Part shown: one piece after another, positions 1 to 13,618 of the stretch
How positions within the stretch are numbered: the first letter of the stretch is position 1
Layout: the number at the start of each line of letters is the position of its first letter
Source: an uncultured Gammaproteobacteria bacterium
GTDB taxonomy: Bacteria > Patescibacteriota > Microgenomatia > Daviesbacterales > UBA10151
Reading direction: 5' to 3'
NCBI GenBank assembly: GCA_964522265.1
Contig: CAZFVS010000012.1
Span: forward strand, 3,501-17,118
Length of the DNA stretch: 13,618 nt
Notes under the pieces: model-generated
Databases searched by the model: none
What the model was told of the DNA's origin: nothing
Seen by the model: the letters and a program-made list of their open reading frames with translations, nothing else
Position numbers and translations under genes: made by a program

Positions 1-179
1 CAGGTGTAATCCACACTGATTTTGAAAAAGGCTTTATCAGGGCTCAGGTTATTGGATATGAAAAATTAATAGAAGCCGGATCCTATGCCAGTGCCAAACA
101 AAAAGGTTGGATTAGAATTGAAGGGAAAGATTATGAGATCAAAGATGGGGATGTGGTTGAGTTTCTGGTCAGCACTTAA
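1..179 (+). CDS. ychF: Ribosome-binding ATPase YchF, C-terminal fragment (5' end lies outside the window)
   Basis: The frame starting at nt 3 reads [58 protein letters not shown], then TAA at 177-179. This is the characteristic YchF C-terminal domain pattern (GFIRAEV ... GK.R.EGKDY.V.DGDV..F). Confidence 0.85.
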
Positions 180-550
180 ACAGGATAATGCGGATGGATT
201 TTTCCCCTAGGAAGCCTTTTTAAGTGGTGGATTTTATCAAGCTCGTTTTGTAATATTACTGCGTGTTCTTGATAGGCATTGTATTGCCTGTTGTGTTTGA
301 TCAGCTGTCTGATAGTTAATGATCCCCAAAGCAGTGCTGTAATCCCAAATGCTGCTGTGTCAAGGTAGTTGGCTGATTCAAAACTTCTGCCTATACCGAA
401 GGTACCCAGAGATGTTGTGATCATTCCGGTTGAGGCAAGAATCGTAGGTGCCCATTTTTCGTAAAATTTAAGCGAACCATTTTTAAACCTGTTTAGCAAA
501 GGAGTTTTTTGTGCCTCTGATCCTGGTCTGTCATATTCATTACTAACCAT
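176..550 (-). CDS. Hypothetical small membrane protein (124 aa, two predicted hydrophobic helices)
   Basis: ATG-initiated ORF with two hydrophobic segments ([21 protein letters not shown] and [16 protein letters not shown]). A TATAAT box sits 8 nt upstream of the ATG. I recognise no family. Confidence 0.5.
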
Positions 551-654: not shown

Positions 655-936
655 ATGCCAACTTATGCATTAACAATATTGCTTAAAAATGACCTTGATG
701 AAGATAAACGCAGGGCAGTCCTGGATGCCGTCAAAGAGCAAATTGGACATGACGGTAAACTCATAAAAGAGGATCTTTGGGGAAGCAGAAACTTGGTTTA
801 TCCGATCAAACATCAAAACAGAGCTTACTTTGTACTGTTGGAATTTGAAAATGATCCCGGCAGTATTTTATCGCTTGACAAAAATATTAAACTAAACGAA
901 GATATTATCCGTTATCTGTTGTTGAGAAAGGATTAA
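655..936 (+). CDS. rpsF: 30S ribosomal protein S6
   Basis: The 93-aa product has the S6 pattern (YALTILLK ... WGSRNLVYPIKHQNRAYFVLLEF). It sits in the conserved rpsF-ssb-rpsR order. Confidence 0.9.
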   Translation: MPTYALTILLKNDLDEDKRRAVLDAVKEQIGHDGKLIKEDLWGSRNLVYPIKHQNRAYFVLLEFENDPGSILSLDKNIKLNEDIIRYLLLRKD

Positions 937-938
937 TA

Positions 939-1484
939 GTGGCAAGCAGAAGTTGGAATAAAGTAGAACTGATTGGTAATTTAACAAGAGATCCCGAACT
1001 CCGTTACACTCCTTCGGGGGCTGCAGTGGTGTCCTTTACTATTGCTACCAACAGGACATATGTTTCAGAAGGAGAGCGGAAAGAGGAGGCTGATTTCCAT
1101 CGGGTTATTGCCTGGAATAAACTGGCTGAACTCTGCAGCCAGCTCTTGAAAAAAGGAAACAGGGTATTTGTTTCAGGAAGGCTGCAAAACCGCTCCTGGG
1201 AAGGGCAGGATGGTCAACCCCGCAACATTACCGAAATTGTAATCGAAGACATGATACTGCTTACCTCCAAGAACGGTTCAATGGAATCAGATTATACCCA
1301 GTCCCGGTCTGCTGCCAAAGCCCAACCAGCTGAAAATGCCATTGGGGTCAAACAGGAAGAGTCTAAAACCGAGCCTGCTGAAAAGGTACCGGATGTACCT
1401 GCGGCAGAAGAAGCAATACCGGCAGAAGATACCCAAACTCCTAAAAAAGAAGATCCAGGAGATCTGGATGACCTGCCTTTCTAA
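939..1484 (+). CDS. ssb: Single-stranded DNA-binding protein
   Basis: GTG start 2 nt after the rpsF stop, with GAAAGGA upstream. The N-terminus is an OB fold (NKVELIGNLTRDPELRYTPSGAAVVSFTIATNR ... FHRVIAWNKLAE). It is followed by a Pro/Glu-rich tail ending in the acidic SSB tip DLDDLPF. Confidence 0.93.
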   Translation: MASRSWNKVELIGNLTRDPELRYTPSGAAVVSFTIATNRTYVSEGERKEEADFHRVIAWNKLAELCSQLLKKGNRVFVSGRLQNRSWEGQDGQPRNITEIVIEDMILLTSKNGSMESDYTQSRSAAKAQPAENAIGVKQEESKTEPAEKVPDVPAAEEAIPAEDTQTPKKEDPGDLDDLPF

Positions 1485-1515: not shown

Positions 1516-1544
1516 TTGCTAATTCCTTCCCTGCAAGGTACAAT
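1516..1544 (+). promoter_or_regulatory. Putative internal sigma70 promoter for rpsR (TTGCTA, 17-nt spacer, TACAAT)
   Basis: TTGCTA at 1516-1521, a 17-nt spacer, and TACAAT at 1539-1544. The ATG at 1553 is 8 nt downstream and has no SD. Confidence 0.4.
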
Positions 1545-1552
1545 ATTATATC

Positions 1553-1867
1553 ATGCCGGTAAAACTTAAGATAACTAAAAAAATAGAACCCGCTAGTAGT
1601 AAGCCTGTAGTGGTGCACGATGGGGAGCAAGCAGCAGAGAAAACCGTGTCTGTACCCGTGAGAACAAAGAAAGGCTGTTTTTTTTGCCAGAATAAAAAAG
1701 AACCGACATTTGAGGACTCTGTTACTCTAAGGAGGTTTATCTCAGACCGCTCAAGGATTGTACCGAAGTTAAGAACTGGAGTTTGTAGTAAACACCAGCG
1801 TTATCTCACCCGCCAGATCAAATATGCCCGTCATCTAGCCCTTTTGCCGTTTGTACCTAGCGTCTGA
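1553..1867 (+). CDS. rpsR: 30S ribosomal protein S18 with an N-terminal extension of about 40 aa
   Basis: S18 core CFFCQNKKEPTFEDSVTLRRFISDRSRIVPKLRTGVCSKHQRYLTRQIKYARHLALLPF. Conserved position after ssb. Ends in TGA at 1865-1867. Confidence 0.9.
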   Translation: MPVKLKITKKIEPASSKPVVVHDGEQAAEKTVSVPVRTKKGCFFCQNKKEPTFEDSVTLRRFISDRSRIVPKLRTGVCSKHQRYLTRQIKYARHLALLPFVPSV

Positions 1868-3082
1868 GTGAAAAAGAGACTGTGTCAATACTGTTACCCA
1901 TCAAGACGAAAAAATCACCTGAGCTTGCATGTTGAATATTACCTGGAGAAAATTCCCAGGATTAATCTTGGGTTGCAGGTTTTTGATAATTTGGTTTTGA
2001 ATGTACTCTCTTTCCTGAAAATCTTAAATTTCTCTGAGACAATAGATGAAACTTTATTTCACAACCGCAGCCTGATATTTTGGCATGAGGCAAAAAAGAG
2101 GAATCTTAAACTGGCTGCCCTGAAATTTTTAGGAAGAACAATTCAGGAGTTTCGGTTGGATTATGAGGGGAGGAAGTATTATTTTGAAGGCACACCTTTA
2201 AATATTTTTCCCAGCCCAAAATTCTTGGATAACAAAATCAAAGTTAAAAAATTTTTACAAAAAAAAGGTATACCGGTAGCTTCAGGTGAACTGTTTACCG
2301 ACTGCAAAAAAGCTTTAGAATTTGCAAAAAAGATTGGACTCCCGGTAGTAATTAAACCAAATACAGGATCTTTAAGCCATCATGTTATTTGTCCTGTAGA
2401 CTCTTTTCCGGCTCTTTCTAAGGCATTTAAGATTGTGAAAAGTTATAGACCGGATTTTATTGTTGAGAAATATACAGCAGGAAATTTATACAGGATCAGT
2501 GTTATAGGTAAAAAATATGTTTTTGTCTGTAAAAAAGACCGGGCTAATATTTTGGGGAATGGCTACGCCAATATAGACCAGCTTATCCAAACCAAAAATG
2601 GAGATATAAACCGCGGTGAAACGAGGCAACTGAATACTACCTTGCACAAGATTCCGCAGGATAATGTACTCCTTAAAAATCTTAAATCTCAAGGATTAAC
2701 TCTGGGGTCCATCCCTCCTAAGGATAAGAAAATCTATCTGCAGGATAAATATATCTTGTCAACAGGTTGTGATGTGGTGGGTTGTACCGGGGTGATAAAT
2801 CCGGCAAATAAAAAACTTTTCTTAAAAATTGCCGGACTGTTTAATACAGATATCCTGGGTATCGACTTTATTTGTCAGGATATAAGAAGAAACTACCTCA
2901 GCCAAACGAGTGTGGTTTTAGAAACTAATAGCCTGCCGTATATTGATATGCACATGTTTCCGTCTGAAGGTAAGCCAGATGATGTAGCAAAAATTAGCTG
3001 GGATTTTATACTCGGAAAACTGGATAAGCAAAAAAATAAAAAATTTTGTACTATTAATAAGTACCGAAAAATCGATGCCTAA
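1868..3082 (+). CDS. Stand-alone ATP-grasp ligase resembling the cyanophycin synthetase N+G domains, with no Mur-ligase domain
   Basis: Motifs seen by eye: DNKIKVKKFLQKKGIPVASG, KKIGLPVVIKPNTGSLSHHV, DFIVEKYTAGNLYRISVIG, RANILGNGYANIDQLIQTKNGDINRG, ILSTGCDVVGCTGVINPANKK, DILGIDFI and VLETNSLP. There is no in-frame ATG until about residue 360, so the start must be non-ATG. GTG at 1868 directly abuts the rpsR TGA, but the exact start is uncertain. Confidence 0.8.
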   Translation: MKKRLCQYCYPSRRKNHLSLHVEYYLEKIPRINLGLQVFDNLVLNVLSFLKILNFSETIDETLFHNRSLIFWHEAKKRNLKLAALKFLGRTIQEFRLDYEGRKYYFEGTPLNIFPSPKFLDNKIKVKKFLQKKGIPVASGELFTDCKKALEFAKKIGLPVVIKPNTGSLSHHVICPVDSFPALSKAFKIVKSYRPDFIVEKYTAGNLYRISVIGKKYVFVCKKDRANILGNGYANIDQLIQTKNGDINRGETRQLNTTLHKIPQDNVLLKNLKSQGLTLGSIPPKDKKIYLQDKYILSTGCDVVGCTGVINPANKKLFLKIAGLFNTDILGIDFICQDIRRNYLSQTSVVLETNSLPYIDMHMFPSEGKPDDVAKISWDFILGKLDKQKNKKFCTINKYRKIDA

Positions 3083-3686
3083 CTTAACAGGAGTTTTTAA
3101 CAAATTGAAAGATTTGGATCAGATACCAGCTATTGTTGTCAACCCCCGGGTGAAAAATAAGGGGCAGTCAGAATCCTTGGAAAATTTTATTGGTAATAGA
3201 GTTTTATACCCCCAGACCATATCAGCCAGTTTTGAGGATATGGAGATTGATTTTGCAATCTTGAAGGAGAGTATAAGAAGAGACCCCGGGCTCTTTTTCA
3301 ACAGTATCAGCAAAAAGATTATTTTGCCTTCTGATTTTATATCAAGATTTCCTCCTGTTTCAAAATTGATAACTGTGGTTGTCCAGGTACTGGTTCTTCC
3401 CGGAGTAACTATGGTTTATATAAAAAAAAACATCAGTATAATTTTGGTAGGCAGCATCATCAACATCAGGAAGCTACCCATATTTAGTAAATTAATAAAA
3501 GACCAAGTATTAATAGATCTGATGGTGGGTGATATTGCAACTAAAGCCCGTTTAAATGAGATCATTATTTTACCCCTCAAGGAGCATCACATTAAGGTTA
3601 AGATTAGTAATTCAGAGGAGATATTTGTTGCCGGTGGAGAATTAGGGTTGGTTTTGGATCTTAGATTGGAGGAAAAGCAAACGTGA
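3075..3686 (+). CDS. Hypothetical protein (203 aa), translationally coupled to the ATP-grasp gene
   Basis: The ATG at 3075 overlaps the ATP-grasp stop by 8 nt (ATGCCTAA). The ORF is continuous and ends at TGA 3684-3686. It has a hydrophobic central stretch (LITVVVQVLVLPGVTMVYI). I recognise no family. Confidence 0.6.
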   Translation: MPNLTGVFNKLKDLDQIPAIVVNPRVKNKGQSESLENFIGNRVLYPQTISASFEDMEIDFAILKESIRRDPGLFFNSISKKIILPSDFISRFPPVSKLITVVVQVLVLPGVTMVYIKKNISIILVGSIINIRKLPIFSKLIKDQVLIDLMVGDIATKARLNEIIILPLKEHHIKVKISNSEEIFVAGGELGLVLDLRLEEKQT

Positions 3687-4834
3687 TATTTGGAGCAAAC
3701 ATAACTTCGCAGCTTGTTGCCAATGTTCGTACAAGAATACAGGTCAACAGGGTGACTCATGTTAAAAGATCGCTTATCGGAGAAGGAAAATTAACTGTGA
3801 GGGTTGGTGAGGAAGTACAACCACAGGATATTTTAGGTCAGTCGCTGCTTAGTGCAGGATTTTCTGCTGTTAATATAGCCAAAATGTTGAATGTAAGGCC
3901 CTCAGAGGGTGGAAAGTATATACAAAGGCCTACCGGTAAAGTAATTTACAAGGGGGAGCTTTTGGCGCTTAAAAAAGAAATCTTCGGGAAAAAAGTAGTA
4001 GTAGCACCTACCGATGGTTTGATTGAAACTTATGATGCCAAAACCGGTGAATTACGGTTACGATTTTTATCAAAAGAGATCCCCCTGACTGCAGGTATTA
4101 TTGGGATAGTAGATAATGTCAACTACGTGACGAATGAGGTAATCATAAAAACTATGGTTACTGAAATTTTTGGTATATTAGGTTCGGGGAGAGAACGGAG
4201 TGGAGTTTTAAATATCCTGGGAGCTCCGGGCGATTTAGTGCATCCAACCCAAATTCAAACCCAGATGCATCAACAGATAATACTTACAGGAGGTTTGGTT
4301 GACAGTTCTATTCTCAGAAAAGCTGCCGGGTTTGGTCTGAGTGGTATTGTTTGCGGAGGGCTTAATGTTGTTGATTATAGATCTATTATGGGCAGCATAA
4401 ACCCCGCAAAGAGGGTAGGAACTGATGTAGGGATTTCCATAGTGGTTACAGAAGGTTTTGGCTTGATTCCGGTAGGCAGTGATATCTTTAATCTGATGAG
4501 GCCGTTTGGCGGTAAATTTGTATTTCTGAATGGGAATATTAATCAGGTATTATTGCCAACAGCAACTGCTGATAGTATACTGACACTGCGCAAAAGCAGT
4601 TTGCCTCTGGAGAAAGTCCATGATATGGTTCCTGAAGTTGAATTAGGGGAGATCAAAATAGGGCTAAAGGTGCGGATTATCTGGCCTCCATTTATGGGTG
4701 CACAGGGGAAGGTTATATCGATTGATCAGACACCAACGGTTTTAGAATCAGGGATATCAACGATTTTACTGACCTTAGAAACAACAAAACAAAAACTCAA
4801 AATACCATATACCAATATAGAAATTATAAAGTAG
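3683..4834 (+). CDS. Hypothetical protein (383 aa) with lipoyl/barrel-sandwich-hybrid-like motifs and a C-terminal KOW-like motif
   Basis: GTG at 3683 overlaps the upstream stop (GTGA), with GGAGGA 9 nt upstream. Motifs: GKLTVRVGEEVQPQDILGQ and KKVVVAPTDGLIETYD (split barrel-sandwich hairpins), IILTGGLVDSSILRKAAGFGLSGIVCGG, and GLKVRIIWPPFMGAQGKVISID (KOW/SH3-like). I see no signal peptide. Function is unknown. Confidence 0.75.
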   Translation: MIFGANITSQLVANVRTRIQVNRVTHVKRSLIGEGKLTVRVGEEVQPQDILGQSLLSAGFSAVNIAKMLNVRPSEGGKYIQRPTGKVIYKGELLALKKEIFGKKVVVAPTDGLIETYDAKTGELRLRFLSKEIPLTAGIIGIVDNVNYVTNEVIIKTMVTEIFGILGSGRERSGVLNILGAPGDLVHPTQIQTQMHQQIILTGGLVDSSILRKAAGFGLSGIVCGGLNVVDYRSIMGSINPAKRVGTDVGISIVVTEGFGLIPVGSDIFNLMRPFGGKFVFLNGNINQVLLPTATADSILTLRKSSLPLEKVHDMVPEVELGEIKIGLKVRIIWPPFMGAQGKVISIDQTPTVLESGISTILLTLETTKQKLKIPYTNIEIIK

Positions 4835-4838
4835 CCAG

Positions 4839-6041
4839 ATGAAATACCTACAAAAGATTAACCTGACATCGATTATAGTATATCTGCTGATTTTTAGTTT
4901 GGGCTGGCAGCTTGGACATCTTGACCTGTCTAGATTTAAAGTTAAAAACCTTAAACCTCCTCAGGATAAACAGACATTAGATTTTAAACTATTTTGGGAT
5001 ACTTGGGATCTGGTTTCCCGGGAATATGTAGATAAAAAAGCCATCGACATTCAGAAAATGTATTACGGGGCGATATCGGGGATGGTTGCATCGCTTGGTG
5101 ATCCATACACCTTTTTTCTTCCTCCGGAAATTCAAAAATCCACCAAAGAAGCATTGAGCGGCAGTTTTGAAGGTGTGGGTATTCAGCTGGGGTTTAATAA
5201 GGAGAAAAGGCTGGTTGTAATAGCTCCGCTCAAGGATACACCTGCAGCAAAAAACGGGATAAAAGCTGGGGATTTAATTCTAAAGATTGAGGGAAAAGAT
5301 ACTGTAAATATAACCCTTCAGGAAGCTGTAACATTAATCAGAGGGCCTAAAGGTACTAAAGTTGGTCTTGAAGTCTATCACGAAGGGGATTCAAAATCCA
5401 CCACCATTTCCCTAACAAGAGATACAATCATAGTCAAAAGTGTTGAGTTTGAGTCTAAGCTGACCAAGGGGGGTAAAAAAGTCGCTTATATTAAATTGTC
5501 AAGTTTTGGGGAAAGAACCCAGGAAGAATGGAATAAGGTCATCAGCGAAGCTGCTGCTAATAATCCTTCAGGAATTGTATTAGATCTTCGTAATAACCCC
5601 GGCGGGTTTTTAGAAGAAGCGGTTTTTATCTCATCAGAATTCATCCCTTCAGGGGATATAGTAATACAGGAAGATGGGCAAGGCGGGAGAAAAGCCTTAC
5701 CCGTTAAGCGGACTGGTAAGTTTTTAAAACAGCCTTTGGTGGTGCTTATTAACAAAGGTTCTGCTTCTGCAGCAGAAATTGTGGCTGGGGCAATACAGGA
5801 TTATAAAAGAGGGAAACTGGTAGGTGAAGAGTCGTTTGGTAAAGGTACGATACAGTCAGCTAAGGATTTAGCGGGAGAGACAGGGATTCATATTACAACA
5901 GCCAAATGGTTGACGCCAAACGGAAGATGGATTCACAACATTGGGCTGACACCTGATGTGAAAGTTGAAGAGCCGGTTATTTCAGATCAGACCCAAAAAG
6001 ACCCCCAGCTTGATCAGGCTTTGGAACTGTTGGATCGCTGA
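4839..6041 (+). CDS. ctpA: S41 family C-terminal processing peptidase (Ctp/Prc-like) with a PDZ domain and an N-terminal membrane anchor
   Basis: FEGVGIQLG ... VVIAPLKDTPAAKNGIKAGDLILKIEG (PDZ); VLDLRNNPGGFLEEAV; LINKGSASAAEIVAGAIQD ... GEESFGKGTIQ (Ser/Lys dyad region). The N-terminal hydrophobic segment is LTSIIVYLLIFSLGW. Confidence 0.92.
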   Translation: MKYLQKINLTSIIVYLLIFSLGWQLGHLDLSRFKVKNLKPPQDKQTLDFKLFWDTWDLVSREYVDKKAIDIQKMYYGAISGMVASLGDPYTFFLPPEIQKSTKEALSGSFEGVGIQLGFNKEKRLVVIAPLKDTPAAKNGIKAGDLILKIEGKDTVNITLQEAVTLIRGPKGTKVGLEVYHEGDSKSTTISLTRDTIIVKSVEFESKLTKGGKKVAYIKLSSFGERTQEEWNKVISEAAANNPSGIVLDLRNNPGGFLEEAVFISSEFIPSGDIVIQEDGQGGRKALPVKRTGKFLKQPLVVLINKGSASAAEIVAGAIQDYKRGKLVGEESFGKGTIQSAKDLAGETGIHITTAKWLTPNGRWIHNIGLTPDVKVEEPVISDQTQKDPQLDQALELLDR

Positions 6042-6065: not shown

Positions 6066-6074
6066 AATACTTTG

Positions 6075-7196
6075 ATGAATGAGAAATTAAAGTTTTTTTT
6101 AATCGCTGTCCTGATAGGAATTATAGCAGGGGTAGCCGCCTTTAGGCTGGCTGTTTTAGGTAAGCTGCCCTTTAAGATTAACCTGCCTCAAGGAATACAA
6201 ACTCAGATACAAAATACCCAAACACGCACCGTTGTACAAGAAGAGAATGCAGTGATTTCAACTGTGGAGAAAACTTCCCCTTCGGTGGTAGCGATTGGTG
6301 TTACCCAGAGGATTGTTAACCCCTTTGACCCTTTCTCCATCCCCAAAAACCAGCAGTCAACTATTGGGACTGGATTTGTGGTTTCAGAAAAAGGGATTAT
6401 TGTTACCAACCGTCATGTTGTTTCGGACACAAGTGTTAAATATTCGGTGGTCACAAAAGAAGGCAAAAAACTTGAGATTAATAAAATTTACCGGGATCCA
6501 AATCTTGATCTAGCTTTAGTGCAGGTTAGTAGCGTGGATGGATTGAAGGCACTGGAATTGGGTGATTCATCTAAACTGAGGGTGGGTCAGACTGTCATAG
6601 CTATCGGTAATGCTTTGGGCAGATTTGATAATACAGTTACTACCGGAGTTGTTTCGGGTTTAGGCCGTTCTGTTTCAGCAGGCGATCCTTTTGGGGGTGA
6701 TACTGAGAGGTTGGATAATTTGATCCAAACTGATGCTGCAATTAACCCCGGTAACTCCGGGGGGCCGCTTTTAAATTCTGCCGGGCAGGTGATTGGGGTG
6801 AATGTAGCAACAACAGAAGGGGCCCAGAATATTGGTTTTGCGATTCTGATCAATCCGGTCAAAGAGCTGGTAGATGAGTTTAATAAAAACGGTAGTATCT
6901 CCAGGGCTTTTTTGGGTATCAGATACCGTTTAATCACGCGGGATATCGCTCTCCTCAATGAAGTTCCACAGGGGGCATATATTCAGGAGGTCATTCAGGG
7001 ATCACCCGCAGAAAAAGCCGGGATCAATGCTGGTGATATTGTCACTAAAATTGATGGTCAGGCAGTGAATGAAGAAAGCAAAATCTCGAGTATCATCCAA
7101 AACAAAAAAGTCGGACAAACTGTTTCTTTGGAGGTTTGGACAGACGGTAAAACCAGGACAGTTACAGCAACTTTGGCAGAATCTTCAAACCAATAA
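6075..7196 (+). CDS. htrA: HtrA/DegP family S1C serine protease with one PDZ domain and an N-terminal anchor
   Basis: Catalytic triad context: GTGFVVSEKGIIVTNRHVV (His), DLALVQV (Asp), TDAAINPGNSGGPLLN (Ser). PDZ: GSPAEKAGINAGDIVTKIDGQ. The ORF track starts at TTG 6072, but I prefer the adjacent ATG at 6075. Confidence 0.92.
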   Translation: MNEKLKFFLIAVLIGIIAGVAAFRLAVLGKLPFKINLPQGIQTQIQNTQTRTVVQEENAVISTVEKTSPSVVAIGVTQRIVNPFDPFSIPKNQQSTIGTGFVVSEKGIIVTNRHVVSDTSVKYSVVTKEGKKLEINKIYRDPNLDLALVQVSSVDGLKALELGDSSKLRVGQTVIAIGNALGRFDNTVTTGVVSGLGRSVSAGDPFGGDTERLDNLIQTDAAINPGNSGGPLLNSAGQVIGVNVATTEGAQNIGFAILINPVKELVDEFNKNGSISRAFLGIRYRLITRDIALLNEVPQGAYIQEVIQGSPAEKAGINAGDIVTKIDGQAVNEESKISSIIQNKKVGQTVSLEVWTDGKTRTVTATLAESSNQ

Positions 7197-7197
7197 T

Positions 7198-7977
7198 TTA
7201 AAATTTAACTATTAAAATCCGGTTCTTCCGGCTTAAATCTTTTTTAATTTCGATTTCTGAATTGGGAAAATATCTTTCTGCTTCTGCTGTTGCTAAATCA
7301 CCTTGATTCTCGTCTATTTCACAAATAAGATATTTTATACCTCCACATCGGAGGTGCCAGCTCAGTTGTGAGAATAATTTTCTGTAAAGCGCAAATCCGT
7401 CTTCACCGCCATCCAGGGCAATTTTTGGTTCCCATTCAGTTACCATCGGATCAATATGCATAAGACTGGTTGTTGGGATGTAAGGGAGATTGGCGACAAT
7501 TACATCAGGGGCTTTTTTAAAATTTGGCAGTAGATCTGACTCTAAAAAAATGATCTGCTTTTCGACATGGTGGAATTTGGCATTTTTTTGAGCAATTTCC
7601 AGAGCTTTTTGGGAAACATCAGTAGCGATGATTTTAGCGTTTGGCAGATTCTTGGTAATTGCTATGGCAATACAGCCAGAGCCTGTGCCAAGGTCAAGGA
7701 TGGTTAGGGATTGCTTCGCTGCGCTCGCAATGGCGCCTGCACTGAGCGTAGTCGAAGTGTCATTGCGAGGAGTCTTTGACGACGAAGCAATCTCTTTTTC
7801 TGCCCTCAATACCTCATCTACCAAAAGTTCTGTTTCAGGACGGGGGATTAATACATCCGGAGTCAGGTAAAATCTAAGTTTGTAAAACTCTGTCCAACCT
7901 CGCTGGTATTGTTTAGGAGGATCAGATTTCTTCTGGATTCTTTGGATCTCTGATTTTAAAGTAGCACCTTTTTTCAT
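7198..7977 (-). CDS. prmC: Release-factor glutamine N5-methyltransferase PrmC/HemK, with a short N-terminus and a 28-aa in-frame insert
   Basis: VLIPRPETELLVDEVL, SAM motif ILDLGTGSGCIAIAI, and catalytic motif IVANLPYIP (NLPY instead of NPPY). It lies immediately downstream of prfA. I prefer ATG at 7977 over the TTG at 7980 used by the track. Confidence 0.88.
   Translation of the reverse strand: MKKGATLKSEIQRIQKKSDPPKQYQRGWTEFYKLRFYLTPDVLIPRPETELLVDEVLRAEKEIASSSKTPRNDTSTTLSAGAIASAAKQSLTILDLGTGSGCIAIAITKNLPNAKIIATDVSQKALEIAQKNAKFHHVEKQIIFLESDLLPNFKKAPDVIVANLPYIPTTSLMHIDPMVTEWEPKIALDGGEDGFALYRKLFSQLSWHLRCGGIKYLICEIDENQGDLATAEAERYFPNSEIEIKKDLSRKNRILIVKF
7709..7792. repeat. 84-bp GC-rich nested palindromic element embedded in frame in prmC (REP/MITE-like)
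   Basis: The outer arms GATTGCTTCG (7709-7718) and CGAAGCAATC (7783-7792) are perfect reverse complements. So are the inner arms CTCGCAATG (7724-7732) and CATTGCGAG (7761-7769). My hand count gives about 55% GC, against clearly AT-rich flanks. The length is exactly 28 codons. Confidence 0.7.
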
Positions 7978-7986
7978 CAAGAATGG

Positions 7987-8895
7987 TTATAATGTTGTTT
8001 GGAGAGCTTGAATTATAGGTTCTAGTTTACCTTCTAAAATATCCTCCAAATTATGCCAGGATTTGCCAACTCTGTGATCTGTGACTCTGTTTTGGGGGAA
8101 ATTGTAGGTTCTGATCTTTTCATTTCTTTCCCCTGTACCCACCATAACTGATCTGGCTCCTGAGATTTTTTGCATTTTTTGTGACTGTTCCATCTCCCAA
8201 AGTTTAGCCCTCAAAAGTGCCATAGCGTTTTCTCTATTTTGCAGCTGGCTTCTTTCAGTTTGGGCTGTTACCACAATCCCTGATGGTTTGTGTTTAACCC
8301 TGACAGCAGTTGATACTTTGTTGACATTTTGCCCGCCGGCGCCTCCGGATCTGAATGCTTCAAATTCTATATCAGCAGGATTGATGTAAACTTCAGTTTC
8401 TGGTACATCCGGCAGTACTGCAACGGTTGCAGTTGAGGTATGAATCCTTCCTGAAGATTCTGTTTTTGGTACTCTTTGGACCCGATGCACCCCTGCTTCG
8501 AATCTTAGATCAGTATAAGCATTCTTGCCTTTGATTTGCAAAACAACCTGTTTAATCTGCCCGATTCCTCCTTCAGATCTGTCCAGTTCTTCAACACTCC
8601 AGCCTCTTTTTTCTGCAAACCTTAAATACATCCGCAGTAAATCTGACGCAAAAAGTCCTGCTTCGTCTCCTCCGGCAGCCGAACGGATTTCCAGGATTGC
8701 AACATTTGGATTGTTAGTTTCTATCTGGGAATCAGTTGGTGTGGCGGCTGAAGTCTGCAGCTCTTCCTTCTGTTTTTCCAGCTCTTCAATCTCAGTTTGG
8801 GCAAGCTGATAAAGCTCAGGATCTTCCAAGAGAGGGGTTACCTCAGCAATTCTGTTGTCTATCTCTTCCAGTTGTTGTTTTATATAATCGTCCAT
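7987..8895 (-). CDS. prfA: Peptide chain release factor 1 with a shortened N-terminal domain (302 aa)
   Basis: RF1-type tripeptide region [22 protein letters not shown] (P-x-T), GGQ motif [20 protein letters not shown], and [14 protein letters not shown]. An in-frame TAG 9 nt upstream of the ATG excludes a longer N-terminus. Confidence 0.93.
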
Positions 8896-8904
8896 AGCGG
8901 TAAG

Positions 8905-9231
8905 CTAGCTATGGAGGTCTTTGCGGGCCTGCATTAAAAGATCTTTTAATGTCGGTTTTTCGGATTTAACATCAGTAACCTTTTTAGTACGCAACTCCTT
9001 TTCCCGCTGTTTTTCCAGTGCCTTTGCCTGGTAATGCTCAACCTTTTTCGAATATCTTTGAACCTGGCCCAGTGTATCAACAAATTTTTGGGTTCCTGTA
9101 AAAAAAGGATGGCATTTTGAACATATCTCCACACGCACGTTATTTGAAGTTGAGCCTGCTATAAATGTGTTGCCGCAAGCGCAACTGATATTAACCATTT
9201 TATTCCAAATAGGATGTATCCCTTGTTTCAT
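8905..9231 (-). CDS. rpmE: 50S ribosomal protein L31 (Cys-containing type) with a Lys-rich C-terminal extension of about 40 aa
   Basis: [28 protein letters not shown] ... [30 protein letters not shown] matches the L31 core. The following 40 or so residues are Lys/Glu rich. Confidence 0.9.
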
Positions 9232-9240
9232 GGTGTTTGT

Positions 9241-9269
9241 AGTATACCAATACTTCGAGTTAGGATCAA
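9241..9269 (-). promoter_or_regulatory. Putative sigma70 promoter of rpmE-prfA-prmC (TTGATC, 17-nt spacer, TGgTATACT)
   Basis: The minus strand reads TTGATCctaactcgaagtattggTATACTacaaacaccATG. It has an extended -10 TG, 9 nt between the -10 box and the ATG, and no SD. Confidence 0.45.
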
Positions 9270-9281
9270 GTGAAAACCATC

Positions 9282-9644
9282 TTACTGCACTTCTTCAGAA
9301 TCATCAAGTAATGCTTTTTCCTCCATCCACGTTTTCCCTTCCTCTTTGCAAGCTTTGAGAGATACAGAAGCATCGCCTATTACGCTTCTTACGACATTTT
9401 CAACAATGCAATCTCTGTAGGTAACCAGATCTGTGTCTGCCCGAAGCTGACTTATCGTTTGATCTGTTTCCGCCTGTTTTGCAACGACTAAATCCAGCCC
9501 TTCGTTCGTCTTGGTGACCTGCTGTATAATACTGTTTGCATCTAGGTTCTGTACAGTTTCTGTATTGCGGTATGTTTGGAAAGCTGCATAACCGCTAAAT
9601 ATCAAAGTTAATGCCAAACCCGCCCTTTCGATTGTAAGTGCCAT
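9282..9644 (-). CDS. Hypothetical N-terminally anchored or secreted small protein (120 aa)
   Basis: ATG at 9644 is preceded by AAGGGGGTGA (SD) about 7 nt upstream. The N-terminal hydrophobic segment is [15 protein letters not shown], and there are two Cys residues. I recognise no family. The track starts it at TTG 9650. Confidence 0.5.
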
Positions 9645-9680
9645 TTTCAATCACCCCCTTCTTTAATTTATCCTATTGTT

Positions 9681-9709
9681 ATCGTAGTAAATGGTTTGGT
9701 AACTGTCAA
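9681..9709 (-). promoter_or_regulatory. Putative sigma70 promoter for the 120-aa ORF (TTGACA, 17-nt spacer, TACGAT)
   Basis: The minus strand reads TTGACAgttaccaaaccatttacTACGAT, followed by a leader of about 35 nt that contains the SD. Confidence 0.45.
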
Positions 9710-12033: not shown

Positions 12034-12759
12034 TTAGTTTTTAACAAATAATACCCGGTTCCTATTTTCAAAATCCAAGCCGTTTATGGCTTGATTTGAA
12101 ATATTAAACCTTTGACAACCCCTACAAACCTCGACCTTTGGGCCTAAAACCTGTTGCATACCAAACCTTTGGGCAACAGCAACCATTGGTGACTTTGCAT
12201 TAGTACGCATTACCACAGGTAGTTCCAATTTTCCTGCCTGTTCAAACAAGCCTTTTACAAGTTGGTTGCTTAAACCCCTATTCCGGTATGGTTTTTTTAT
12301 CCCAACTTCTGAAATATAAAACAGCCTATCTAAAACCCCATTCAGGCTTAATATGCTTGTCAATTTTTTCTGCATATCTGAAGTTTTATATTTTTCAGCA
12401 ATCAGGGCAGTTGAATTCTCTGGATAACCCAAACCAAAGCCCACAAATCCGCCGGGGTAATCCGGTAAATTCCTAAATTTTTCTTTAGGATCCCTCAGCA
12501 CCAGGATTAATGCACCTTCCCTCCCGCTGTCACTTAGTAGATAGCTGCGGGTTTCTTTATAAGGATATGCTTCCTGCAAGATGTCTCCACAATTTATACA
12601 AATTTGCTCCTTGGAAGTTTTCAGTCCATAATACTTTCCACATCCGCTGCAAATTGTTTTTTCATTCCAGGGCGGGTCGGCAAAAACTTCTTGGTATGTC
12701 AAAACCAGTTCGGTTGTATCTACTTCCGGTCTGAATTCATACATATTAATCTTTTCCAT
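12034..12759 (-). CDS. GNAT-like N-acyltransferase with an inserted CxxC-x16-CxxC zinc ribbon and a third C-terminal CxxC
   Basis: Acetyl-CoA motif-A-like segment FYISEVGIKKPYRNRGLSNQLVKGLFEQA. Cys motifs CSGCGKYYGLKTSKEQICINCG and CRGCQRF. ATG at 12759 has a strong SD (GAGGAGGaacATG). The track's TTG at 12780 is less likely. Confidence 0.65.
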   Translation of the reverse strand: MEKINMYEFRPEVDTTELVLTYQEVFADPPWNEKTICSGCGKYYGLKTSKEQICINCGDILQEAYPYKETRSYLLSDSGREGALILVLRDPKEKFRNLPDYPGGFVGFGLGYPENSTALIAEKYKTSDMQKKLTSILSLNGVLDRLFYISEVGIKKPYRNRGLSNQLVKGLFEQAGKLELPVVMRTNAKSPMVAVAQRFGMQQVLGPKVEVCRGCQRFNISNQAINGLDFENRNRVLFVKN

Positions 12760-13618
12760 GTTCCTCCTCACCCCCTCCAAAGCTGTGGATTAAGGCAGAA
12801 TATTTGCCTTCAGCTTTCAAAAGATTTGGTATAAAAATATACTCATTTTCTTTGTGGGCCATCTCCAGATTACCGGCGCCGAATGTTATACAGGGTATTT
12901 TATTGAAGACCTGCCAAAGCATTTGGGTATCTATAAACCCAAAAGACCCGAGGCCTAAGTAATTTTTGCCTGTAATTTTTTCAATCTTTTTTAGCCTATT
13001 TTTTGGTGTTATCCATAATCCAAAATCATGTCTAACTTTATAATTTATTATTTTTAAACCCTCTTTTTTGATCAAACTTTTAAATATTTCAACCACCCTT
13101 TTTGCATTTAATTTTGGGTCAGCAGGCCTAATATCCAAAACAAATTCAGCTATGTCTGCAACATTATTTCCTTCCCTGCCAATCTCTTTGCCTAAATCCA
13201 AACCGCCTTGAATATAAGCTAAATTACAGCTGGTTTTCCCAAGCATATTATCCTGGTACTTTTCCATAATATTTTTTAGTTCATTTATGGCATTTATACT
13301 GCCCAGGATGGCATTTTTACCATTTTGGGGTTTTGAAGCATGTGCTGTCTTCCCTTTGACTTGAAAATTTATTTCAATTAAGCCCCTGCAACCATTGCCG
13401 ATACTAAGGTTGTACCCATCTGCAGAAATAATCAGTTTTGGGTTAATTTTACACTTGTACTCATCAATAAATTTTTTCATCCCCAAAAAATCATATTCTT
13501 CATCAACATACAAAAGCAGCATTAAGCCTTTGGTTTTTTCAGCTTTTTCTAAAGCACAAATTAGGGCTGCCAAAGAGCCTTTCATGTCTGTTGCTCCAAG
13601 CCCAAAAAGTTTTTCACC
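12746..13618 (-). CDS. M20 family metallopeptidase/deacylase (ArgE/DapE-like); N-terminus lies outside the window
   Basis: The frame stays open to the window edge (GEKLFGLGATDMKGSLAALI ... = GxGxxDMKG motif). Also LLYVDEEYDFLG (metal-binding Glu-Glu region) and a C-terminal EMAHKENEYI (His ligand context). Stop at 12746-12748. Confidence 0.85.
   Translation of the reverse strand, partial: GEKLFGLGATDMKGSLAALICALEKAEKTKGLMLLLYVDEEYDFLGMKKFIDEYKCKINPKLIISADGYNLSIGNGCRGLIEINFQVKGKTAHASKPQNGKNAILGSINAINELKNIMEKYQDNMLGKTSCNLAYIQGGLDLGKEIGREGNNVADIAEFVLDIRPADPKLNAKRVVEIFKSLIKKEGLKIINYKVRHDFGLWITPKNRLKKIEKITGKNYLGLGSFGFIDTQMLWQVFNKIPCITFGAGNLEMAHKENEYIFIPNLLKAEGKYSALIHSFGGGEEEHGKD

Follow-up and report, generated by a model that had tools for sequence, protein, structure and literature searches.

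The stretch of DNA analysed here (the window; 13,618 nucleotides (nt) of contig CAZFVS010000012.1, assembly GCA_964522265.1, assigned by GTDB to the Daviesbacterales) contains, directly behind the ribosomal protein gene rpsR, a gene for an ATP-grasp protein of 404 amino acids (aa), which is called the ligase below. It was found probable that this protein is an active-looking, stand-alone ATP-dependent carboxylate-amine ligase, that it belongs to a family of the candidate phyla radiation (CPR, Patescibacteria) with a specificity other than that of the cyanophycin synthetase CphA, and that its gene was inserted into an existing operon. The ligase comes from an uncharacterised CPR family, a variant form in the CphA-G/GshF branch of the ATP-grasp enzymes, and is not a surprising new system. 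An earlier reading of the same letters (the original prediction) had described it as a CphA-like ATP-grasp hard-wired to the S6-SSB-S18 operon.

Among the NCBIfam models, the strongest match was to cyanophycin synthetase (TIGR02068, 7.6e-63), followed by GshAB (NF002688, 3.9e-42) and the NAGGN synthetase Ngg (TIGR03103, 3e-20, residues 73–361). The three matches covered G-domain portions only, the first two being local to profile positions 212–465 of 862 and 476–745 of 756, and they were far under the family cutoffs (213 bits against 850, 144.6 against 425 and 72 against 569, respectively). RimK, Ddl, LysX and the remaining models scored ~1e-8 or worse; the rimK_fam model TIGR00768 gave 33.6 bits against a cutoff of 143.4 over residues 121–217 only, and the best Ddl model 35 bits against 243. 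In Pfam, only a generic ATP-binding segment was matched (PF08443, 28.5 bits, residues 121–176). A sequence search of the PDB returned CphA2 as the best match (8FXH, 3.7e-32), CphA1 at ~1e-30 and GshAB at about 1e-26; the phmmer alignment with CphA2 was again limited to the G-domain region (ligase residues 119–378 on 8fxh 213–476).

The AlphaFold2 (AF2) model built on the family alignment had a mean predicted local distance difference test score (pLDDT) of 91.9 and a predicted template modelling score (pTM) of 0.89. When the model was compared with the PDB by Foldseek, hundreds of ATP-grasp structures were matched, and TeCphA1 (7WAE) and Streptococcus agalactiae GshF (3LN6) were level at 3e-28 (TMq 0.70, ~330 columns). 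ArgX, LysX and Ddl reached only ~1e-10, Ddl with TMq values of 0.32–0.38. The aligned part was the entire G domain (core, lid and G-omega insertion), and residues 1 to ~55 were without counterpart. According to the model, residues ~55–385 form an ATP-grasp domain that is equally close to the G domain of CphA1/CphA2 and to the glutathione-synthetase module of GshF. The protein combines the fold of the ATP-grasp superfamily with its conserved Lys, Arg and Mg2+-binding Asp/Glu/Asn residues. Membership of the Ddl family was rejected by the family models as well as by the fold, in view of the scores above.

The motifs on which the original prediction was built were all located in the protein (LGNGYANIDQLIQTKNGDINRG at residues 229–250, ILSTG at 296–300 and GIDFI at 331–335). 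Its assignment to a stand-alone ATP-grasp of the CphA G-domain type, too short at 404 aa for the Mur-ligase-like M domain, agreed with TIGR02068 and with Foldseek, and the profile searches placed RimK and Ddl far under their cutoffs, with the G portions of CphA and GshAB as the best matches. The proposed resemblance to the N region of CphA was not reproduced, because residues 1–123 had no match in Pfam or in PDB sequences and the structural alignment comprised the G domain only. The N domain and the M domain of CphA are both absent from the ligase.

To locate the active site, the ligase was mapped onto TeCphA1 by pairwise phmmer alignments, and conservation was counted in the family alignment, which held 41 homologs at first and 103 sequences later; the counts given here are those of the larger set. 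The catalytic set was kept: K163, R209, D333, E352 and N354, which correspond to K261, R309, D431, E450 and N452 of TeCphA1, were each found in 102–103 of the 103 sequences, and the basic residue R323 of TeCphA1 was kept as K/R223. S168, H172 and G300 were conserved in all 103 sequences, D302 in 99, the mapped residues of the C-terminal core (D333, E352, Y358 and D360) in 94–103, and N66, R67, E74 and R78 at ≥95%.

The residues that recognise the substrates of CphA1 were replaced. In TeCphA1, H267 of the P-loop stabilises the acyl-phosphate, N394 and R458 bind the beta- and alpha-carboxylates of the incoming Asp, and E215 (D212 being the StCphA2 equivalent) binds the Arg side chain of cyanophycin; these and the other residue roles were taken from the literature (PMC9427784). 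In the ligase family, H267 is replaced by L169 (98/103) inside the invariant G-S-L-S-x-H, N394 by I/V/T296 and R458 by D360 (103/103), and Y358 (94/103) stands in place of G456. The equivalents of the Arg-binding acid, residues 118 and 119, were variable, the former being mostly I, F, L, S or V and the latter Asp in 28 of the 103 sequences. Where the ligase family has L169 in the P-loop and D360 at the R458 position, the residues of GshF are Tyr/Phe and Met/Tyr, respectively. Since these two positions are unlike those of both CphA1 and GshF, the family fits neither paradigm. From its sequence, the ligase looks catalytically competent, with the charge of the nucleophile pocket reversed. Because the Asp-recognition residues N394 and R458, and G456 and H267 as well, are replaced, the nucleophile would not be L-Asp, and the ligase would not be an Asp-adding cyanophycin synthetase. 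The nucleophile probably has one carboxylate, which would meet K/R223, and a cationic or polar group facing D360.

These substitutions also bear on the idea of a minimal cyanophycin-like polymerase, in which the lone G domain, by repeated addition of an amino acid or dipeptide (beta-Asp-Arg in the case of CphA2), would build a polyamide for storage or for the cell surface. The G domains of CphA2 and CphA1 were the top sequence matches, and the label 'cyanophycin synthetase' has already been given to some members by annotation pipelines. However, the Asp-binding N394 and R458 are replaced and the cyanophycin-Arg-binding acid (E215/D212) is not conserved; moreover, the known CphA1 and CphA2 proteins all retain N and (truncated) M domains important for stability and oligomerisation, both of which the ligase lacks, and neither a cyanophycinase nor an isoaspartyl dipeptidase recurred near the ligase in the neighbour census of 42 lineages described below. 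A polymerase of this kind is considered very unlikely.

The N-terminus of ~55 residues, with its Cys-x2-Cys-x7-His pattern, probably forms a small metal-binding knuckle. C6, C9 and H17 were present in all 95 sequences having the N-terminus, and H21 in 59 of 103. H21 (codon 1928–1930) was observed to covary with C301 (2768–2770): the pair was His/Cys in 56 of 59 sequences, and in 13 of 22 sequences with K/R21, residue 301 was Ala. Contact between the knuckle and the G-omega substrate loop, or a metal bound by both, may lie behind this covariation, which could also be a phylogenetic pattern.

A homolog search at E ≤ 1e-5 returned 160 proteins, so that the family has at least this number of members, nearly all of them ~400 aa long and from Patescibacteria. 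The hosts included Daviesbacteria, Roizmanbacteria, Uhrbacteria, Doudnabacteria, Kerfeldbacteria, the Parcubacteria group and Saccharibacteria, and the existing labels of the members were 'hypothetical', 'cyanophycin synthetase' and 'Ddl-like ATP-grasp'. An exhaustive search with the N-terminal 123 residues gave 38 representative clusters, which were ~400 aa or fragments with the sole exception of the protein P0122 (see below). No curated Pfam or NCBIfam family matched the ligase as a whole, and nothing specific was found in the literature on the family in CPR or on stand-alone CphA-like ATP-grasps, in line with the original view that this use of the domain is undescribed. The ligase appears to represent an unnamed family of ~400-aa ATP-grasp proteins that is almost entirely confined to Patescibacteria. 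A few members were found in metagenome-assembled genomes labelled Gammaproteobacteria (L002 and L004, titled 'uncultured Gammaproteobacteria', and P0106). These may reflect mis-binning rather than true occurrence outside Patescibacteria, because they lie on short contigs and are 49–55% identical to CPR sequences.

The ligase ORF (open reading frame) is intact on the + strand, with 404 codons from GTG to TAA. At its junction with rpsR (GTC TGA/GTG AAA AAG), the gap between the rpsR stop at 1865–1867 and the GTG is 0 nt, and the two genes are in the same frame. The earliest internal Met is M361, within YIDMHMF, and a non-ATG start is therefore required, as had been predicted. With the GTG at 1868, the CxxC begins 5 residues past the start, which is the commonest layout in the family; the 404-codon start is considered correct because the N-terminal CxxC…H motif is conserved family-wide. 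The public gene call (P0001, 369 aa) begins at a TTG at 1973, 35 codons late, and omits 1868–1972; since this cuts off the conserved motif, the public call is N-terminally truncated. The annotated start of the Daviesbacteria ortholog at locus L005 (7001) is ~25 codons short of the GTG at its own rpsR stop.

No GGAGG-like or other Shine-Dalgarno-like motif was found in the 20 nt before the ligase GTG, although such motifs are present before other genes of the window. In L005, the closest relative, the rpsR/ligase junction is an overlapping TAGTG, and the ligase is in a different frame from rpsR; hence stop-start coupling is common to both genomes and the shared frame is not. The missing Shine-Dalgarno-like sequence and the overlap in L005 make termination-reinitiation coupling plausible at this junction, so that translation by ribosomes terminating on rpsR, as originally suggested, remains a sensible reading. 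It was also considered whether the TGA, which is all that stands between the two genes in their common frame, is read through or recoded to give a 509-aa S18-ligase fusion, by which the ligase would be held at the ribosome. Evidence against such a fusion comes from L005, where the genes overlap in different frames and the common frame is thus not conserved; a shared frame has a chance of one in three, and the 40 other lineages studied lack rpsR upstream. In addition, S18, p203 and S41 all end at a TGA with normal lengths, and in-frame TGA codons were absent from conserved genes, which indicated that the genome uses code 11. An alternative genetic code was rejected for this reason, and read-through is scarcely credible.

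The ligase lies in an array of genes on one strand: rpsF, ssb, rpsR, the ligase gene, p203, p383, an S41 C-terminal processing peptidase (4839–6041) and an HtrA-type protease (6072–7196). Synteny was analysed at 95 loci with family members, which represent 42 lineages at 70% identity, with ~204 kb of flank. It was observed that rpsR was upstream of the ligase in two of the 42 lineages only, those of the window and L005, and tblastn with the window proteins likewise found S6, SSB, S18, p203, p383 and S41 beside the ligase only in L005. The neighbour census, for which 514 flanking ORFs were clustered and 131 proteins (the two nearest on each side in each lineage) were searched with Pfam, gave no partner gene recurring in more than three of the 42 lineages among these nearest neighbours. 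Synteny was seen at lineage level only, with DHH-like, PilB, TsaE and PolA genes in one Parcubacteria-like group and GtrA in another.

In Daviesbacteria GW2011_GWA2_38_24 and its relatives (L098–L103), the gene order is ychF-rpsF-ssb-rpsR-(25 nt)-p203-p383-S41-HtrA, and no ATP-grasp gene was found in the 17 kb around this operon. The conserved companions of rpsR in Daviesbacteria are p203, p383 and the two proteases. Because other Daviesbacteria hold the same operon without it, the ligase appears to be a recent insertion between rpsR and p203, specific to the sub-lineage of the window and L005. The p203 homolog directly after rpsR in L098 and L103 is 37% identical to that of the window, and the p203 homolog in L005 is 50% identical. 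The ligase tail (residues 385–404) spans the former rpsR-p203 gap into the start of p203, whose ATG at 3075 overlaps it by 8 nt. At 0.36, the GC content does not differ between the ligase gene and p203, the native gene beside it, and composition is therefore uninformative on the origin of the ligase gene. A defence or phage origin of the inserted gene was considered and rejected, as there were no PADLOC or PHROG matches.

As the position of the ligase is a lineage-specific insertion, its placement says nothing on the substrate. The idea of a ligase hard-wired to the S6-SSB-S18 operon had to be abandoned, given two lineages of 42 and a Daviesbacteria operon that exists without the ligase; lack of the rpsR adjacency in relatives, which the original prediction had itself named as evidence against it, was found in 40 of the 42. 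The proposed ribosomal or SSB substrates found no support either, for S6, S18 or SSB. A RimK-like enzyme would add amino acids to the C-terminus of one of these proteins. RimK is an ATP-grasp of the same broad clade, in keeping with the partial PF08443 match, the ligase appears translationally coupled to rpsR in two genomes, and CphA G domains likewise act on the C-terminal carboxylate of a peptide. Nevertheless, the adjacency arose through insertion into an operon existing without the ligase, TIGR00768 was far under its cutoff of 143, and LysX/ArgX-type enzymes were 17 orders of magnitude below CphA and GshF in Foldseek. The two C-termini are present as had been quoted, LLLRKD in S6 and an acidic tail in SSB; that of S6 has no acidic Glu-Glu ending, and in SSB the tip DLDDLPF is an ordinary interaction motif. 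RimK-like tailing is therefore judged highly improbable.

By homology, ATP would be held between the lid and the core of the ligase, and the carboxylate of the substrate would be phosphorylated with the participation of K163, R209, D333, E352, N354 and two Mg2+. An amine positioned by the large loop of G-omega would then attack the acyl-phosphate, to yield an amide bond, ADP and Pi. In the window, the gene would be co-transcribed with the rpsF-ssb-rpsR-p203-p383-S41-HtrA operon, and ribosomes would probably re-initiate at the TGA/GTG to translate it. Our suggestion for its role is tentative: the ligase may make or modify a small peptide, and the most plausible candidates are peptides linked to the envelope or to peptidoglycan precursors, or containing a D-amino acid.

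Several neighbours point weakly in this direction. In L010/L011, MurE is directly downstream of the ligase and the alanine racemase gene Alr 5 kb upstream; in L011, the ligase (7001–8188) and MurE (8245–9702; 591 bits against a cutoff of 373) are on the same strand with a gap of 57 nt. In L095, which belongs to an unrelated lineage, a MurC/Mpl-like gene (1193–2605) overlaps the stop of the ligase gene (12–1196) by 4 nt on the same strand, and MurE or MurC is within 2 kb of the ligase in L050/L055 and L090. Mur ligases were thus near the family gene in four of the 42 lineages, compared with ~1 expected in the 204 kb of flank. A split cyanophycin synthetase, made of the ligase and a separate M-domain protein, was rejected, because the L011 neighbour is a bona fide MurE and the others are MurC, Mpl-like or MurE. 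With regard to the idea that the ligase replaces Ddl, a canonical ddl was not found in 760 kb of family-bearing loci, in a search with an approximate E. coli DdlB query and with only ~0.8 copies expected. In the protein P0122 (SRR3989344_1502638), a DapF-fold domain (residues 1–250) is N-terminal to a family member (255–487). This histidine-racemase-like domain matched CntK (1.7e-17) and HisR (2.4e-16), both under cutoff, and the protein is C-terminally truncated. A precedent for such a ligase-racemase logic is AslA, an ATP-grasp D-Asp ligase in an operon with the racemase RacD (PMC4155827). A more definite scheme can be drawn, in which a DapF-fold racemase supplies an unusual amino acid, possibly D-configured and cationic, and a CPR-specific envelope ligase joins it to an envelope peptide such as a peptidoglycan precursor, with the Cys2-His knuckle as a portion of the substrate site; in this full form, we regard it as distinctly unlikely. 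If true, a CphA-type G domain of CPR would be carrying out a type of peptidoglycan modification that has not been described.

The ligase could instead be a GshF-type cytoplasmic synthetase. In a single step, one amino acid would be joined to a di- or tripeptide or to an acyl-amino acid, and the product would be an osmolyte, a low-molecular-weight thiol or a peptide resembling a cofactor, without relation to the wall. The equal standing of GshF and CphA1 in the fold search and the GshAB and Ngg matches (3.9e-42 and 3e-20) are in its favour, and so is the neighbourhood, which consists of scattered housekeeping genes. In the most divergent branch, of ~30% identity, moreover, the family gene adjoins a TrxB-like flavoprotein gene near ftsZ/ftsA at two loci from separate assemblies (L096, 8639–9682; L097, 8364–9293). 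These TrxB-like genes are convergent and not co-oriented, however, no GshA-like or GNAT partner was found at any locus examined, and the residues of the P-loop and of the R458 position are unlike those of GshF. CPR bacteria also have a very limited biosynthetic capacity. On balance, a GshF-type role is regarded as unlikely.

Some points weigh against our overall reading of an inserted CPR ligase with a possible envelope role. The assignment of active-site residues depends on the pairwise alignments onto TeCphA1, and the location and predicted metal role of the N-terminal motif were deduced rather than read from model coordinates. The ligase-free operon was examined in one distant Daviesbacteria species group only. 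The enrichment of Mur ligases is weak (Poisson p ~0.02) and post hoc, the racemase fusion is known from one read-archive protein only, with no racemase gene near other family members among the loci examined, and the TrxB-like neighbour suits a GshF-like small thiol or peptide role equally well. Finally, missing synteny alone does not exclude a ribosomal-protein substrate; E. coli rimK is not known to be linked to rpsF either.

CPR bacteria have very small genomes and few biosynthetic enzymes, and a conserved ATP-consuming ligase is therefore a gap in their metabolic map. The family suggests that a CphA/GshF-type G domain can form a minimal enzyme by itself, with its specificity pocket altered, which is relevant to the engineering of cyanophycin synthetases and amino-acid ligases. 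The present analysis corrects both the family labels and the truncated gene call of the window. Labels such as cyanophycin synthetase or Ddl-like could mislead metabolic reconstructions into inferring cyanophycin storage in CPR, although no published case has been established. It also advises caution in inferring function from gene order in compact genomes, since an insertion into a pre-existing operon produced the zero-gap junction with rpsR.

The features of the ligase gene and its operon are collected in the table below. The total of promoter-like sites in the window was not above the shuffled background, and the site in the ssb-rpsR gap could serve rpsR and the ligase as an internal promoter. 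The overlapping pair p203/p383 (3075–4834 in the window, 8267–10004 in L005 and 7420–9131 in L098) gave no Pfam, NCBIfam, PHROG or PADLOC match. For p383, 353 homologs were found, mostly in Daviesbacteria; its AF2 model (pLDDT 88) was without a global PDB match in Foldseek and resembled known structures only in its C-terminal KOW/SH3-like barrel (NusG, Spt5, uL24-type) and in a middle part akin to PA domains. As a protein with a KOW element and a link to a ribosomal-protein operon, p383 may merit separate study. At the start of the window is the 3' end of ychF (1–178, + strand), a gene that also precedes rpsF in L005 and L098; the ychF-rpsF interval holds a 124-aa ORF in the window (176–550, − strand), a dCMP-deaminase gene in L005 and a 68-aa ORF in L098. 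Further downstream, on the − strand, an M20-family peptidase gene (DapE/ArgE-like; 12746–13585) shares the last 35 nt at its 3' end with a 248-aa ORF (12034–12780), which shows weak GNAT similarity and has a zinc-ribbon-like CxxC…CxxC segment. Rfam and tRNA scans of the window found nothing.

Table. Coordinates of the ligase gene, its predicted parts and the surrounding operon features in the window
Feature	Position	Strand	Basis
rpsF	655..936	+	Pfam Ribosomal_S6, 5.4e-20
ssb	939..1484	+	Pfam SSB, 3.5e-37
Promoter-like TTGCTA-17-TACAAT in the ssb-rpsR gap	1516..1544	+	Consensus scan, 9/12 matches
rpsR (ribosomal protein S18)	1553..1867	+	Pfam Ribosomal_S18, 1.7e-16; C-terminus LALLPFVPSV is a normal S18 end
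Stop-start junction TGA/GTG	1865..1870	+	Sequence read directly
ATP-grasp ligase gene, 404 aa	1868..3082	+	ORF, profile, alignment and model evidence
Motif C6-x2-C9-x7-H17-x3-H21, putative metal knuckle	1883..1930	+	Family alignment; no Pfam/PDB match
N-terminal subdomain of the ATP-grasp core, residues ~53–120, with NRSLIF-EAKKR helix	2024..2227	+	AF2 secondary structure; Foldseek alignment
Lid subdomain, residues ~138–205, with K163 and P-loop G167-S-L-S-x-H172	2279..2482	+	phmmer to TeCphA1
G-omega-like insertion, residues ~225–301, with 'large loop' K294..I296..S298..G300-C301-D302	2540..2770	+	Aligned to TeCphA1 325–399
Catalytic C-terminal core, D333/E352/N354 (predicted Mg2+ ligands) and L356-P-Y-I-D360-M-H362	2864..2953	+	TeCphA1 alignment
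Non-conserved C-terminal tail, residues 385–404	3020..3082	+	Conservation ≤0.16 after residue 381; pLDDT <50 for 397–404
p203, uncharacterised	3075..3686	+	Native downstream neighbour of rpsR in Daviesbacteria; no family match
p383, uncharacterised, beta-rich, KOW-like C-terminus	3683..4834	+	Native operon gene; AF2 and Foldseek

Compared with known systems, RimK offers a thematic link, being an ATP-grasp that acts on a C-terminal carboxylate, that of S6. RimK lacks the G-omega insertion, and only its generic ATP-binding segment matches the ligase. Its substrate S6 has an acidic Glu-Glu C-terminus, which the S6 of the window does not share, and the synteny of the ligase with rpsF/rpsR is an insertion artefact rather than a RimK-like link. 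AslA/Aslfm of lactic acid bacteria is a stand-alone ATP-grasp by which a peptidoglycan precursor receives a D-amino acid, and its gene is coupled to that of a racemase, which parallels P0122 and the Mur neighbours; this is an analogy of logic only, and no specific sequence relationship was tested or seen. Ngg has an ATP-grasp module of the same clade as the ligase, but carries a GNAT domain, for which the family has no partner nearby.

The C-terminal module of GshF/GshAB (3LN6, 3LN7) ties structurally with CphA1 (3.1e-28, TMq 0.70, 337 columns) and joins one amino acid to the carboxylate of a peptide. GshF carries a fused gamma-glutamylcysteine ligase (GshA) domain at its N-terminus, whereas the ligase has none, nor a GshA-like neighbour in the 42 lineages, and in place of Leu169 of the P-loop and Asp360 (the R458 position), GshF has Tyr/Phe and Met/Tyr. 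CphA2 (8FXH, 7TA5) is the best sequence match in the PDB at 3.7e-32. It is ~630 aa long and includes an N domain and a truncated M domain for stability and oligomerisation, both missing from the ligase, and it has a Tyr where the ligase family has the invariant D360, so that beta-Asp-Arg is an unlikely substrate for the ligase. CphA1 is a three-domain N-G-M protein of ~870 aa, with the N domain at 1–161 and an active MurE-like M domain, in contrast to the 404 aa of the ligase without N and M. The ligase differs from it in N394 (I/V), R458 (D), G456 (Y) and H267 (L), in the non-conserved E215 and in its own CxxC…H N-terminus. On the other hand, the G domain of CphA1 (TeCphA1 7WAE; SuCphA1 7LG5) has the same core, lid and G-omega as the ligase at ~27–29% identity over ~325 columns, and its catalytic K261, R309, D431, E450 and N452 and its basic R323 are all kept. 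The chemistry is probably shared as well, with an acyl-phosphate formed on a carboxylate and then attacked by an amine.

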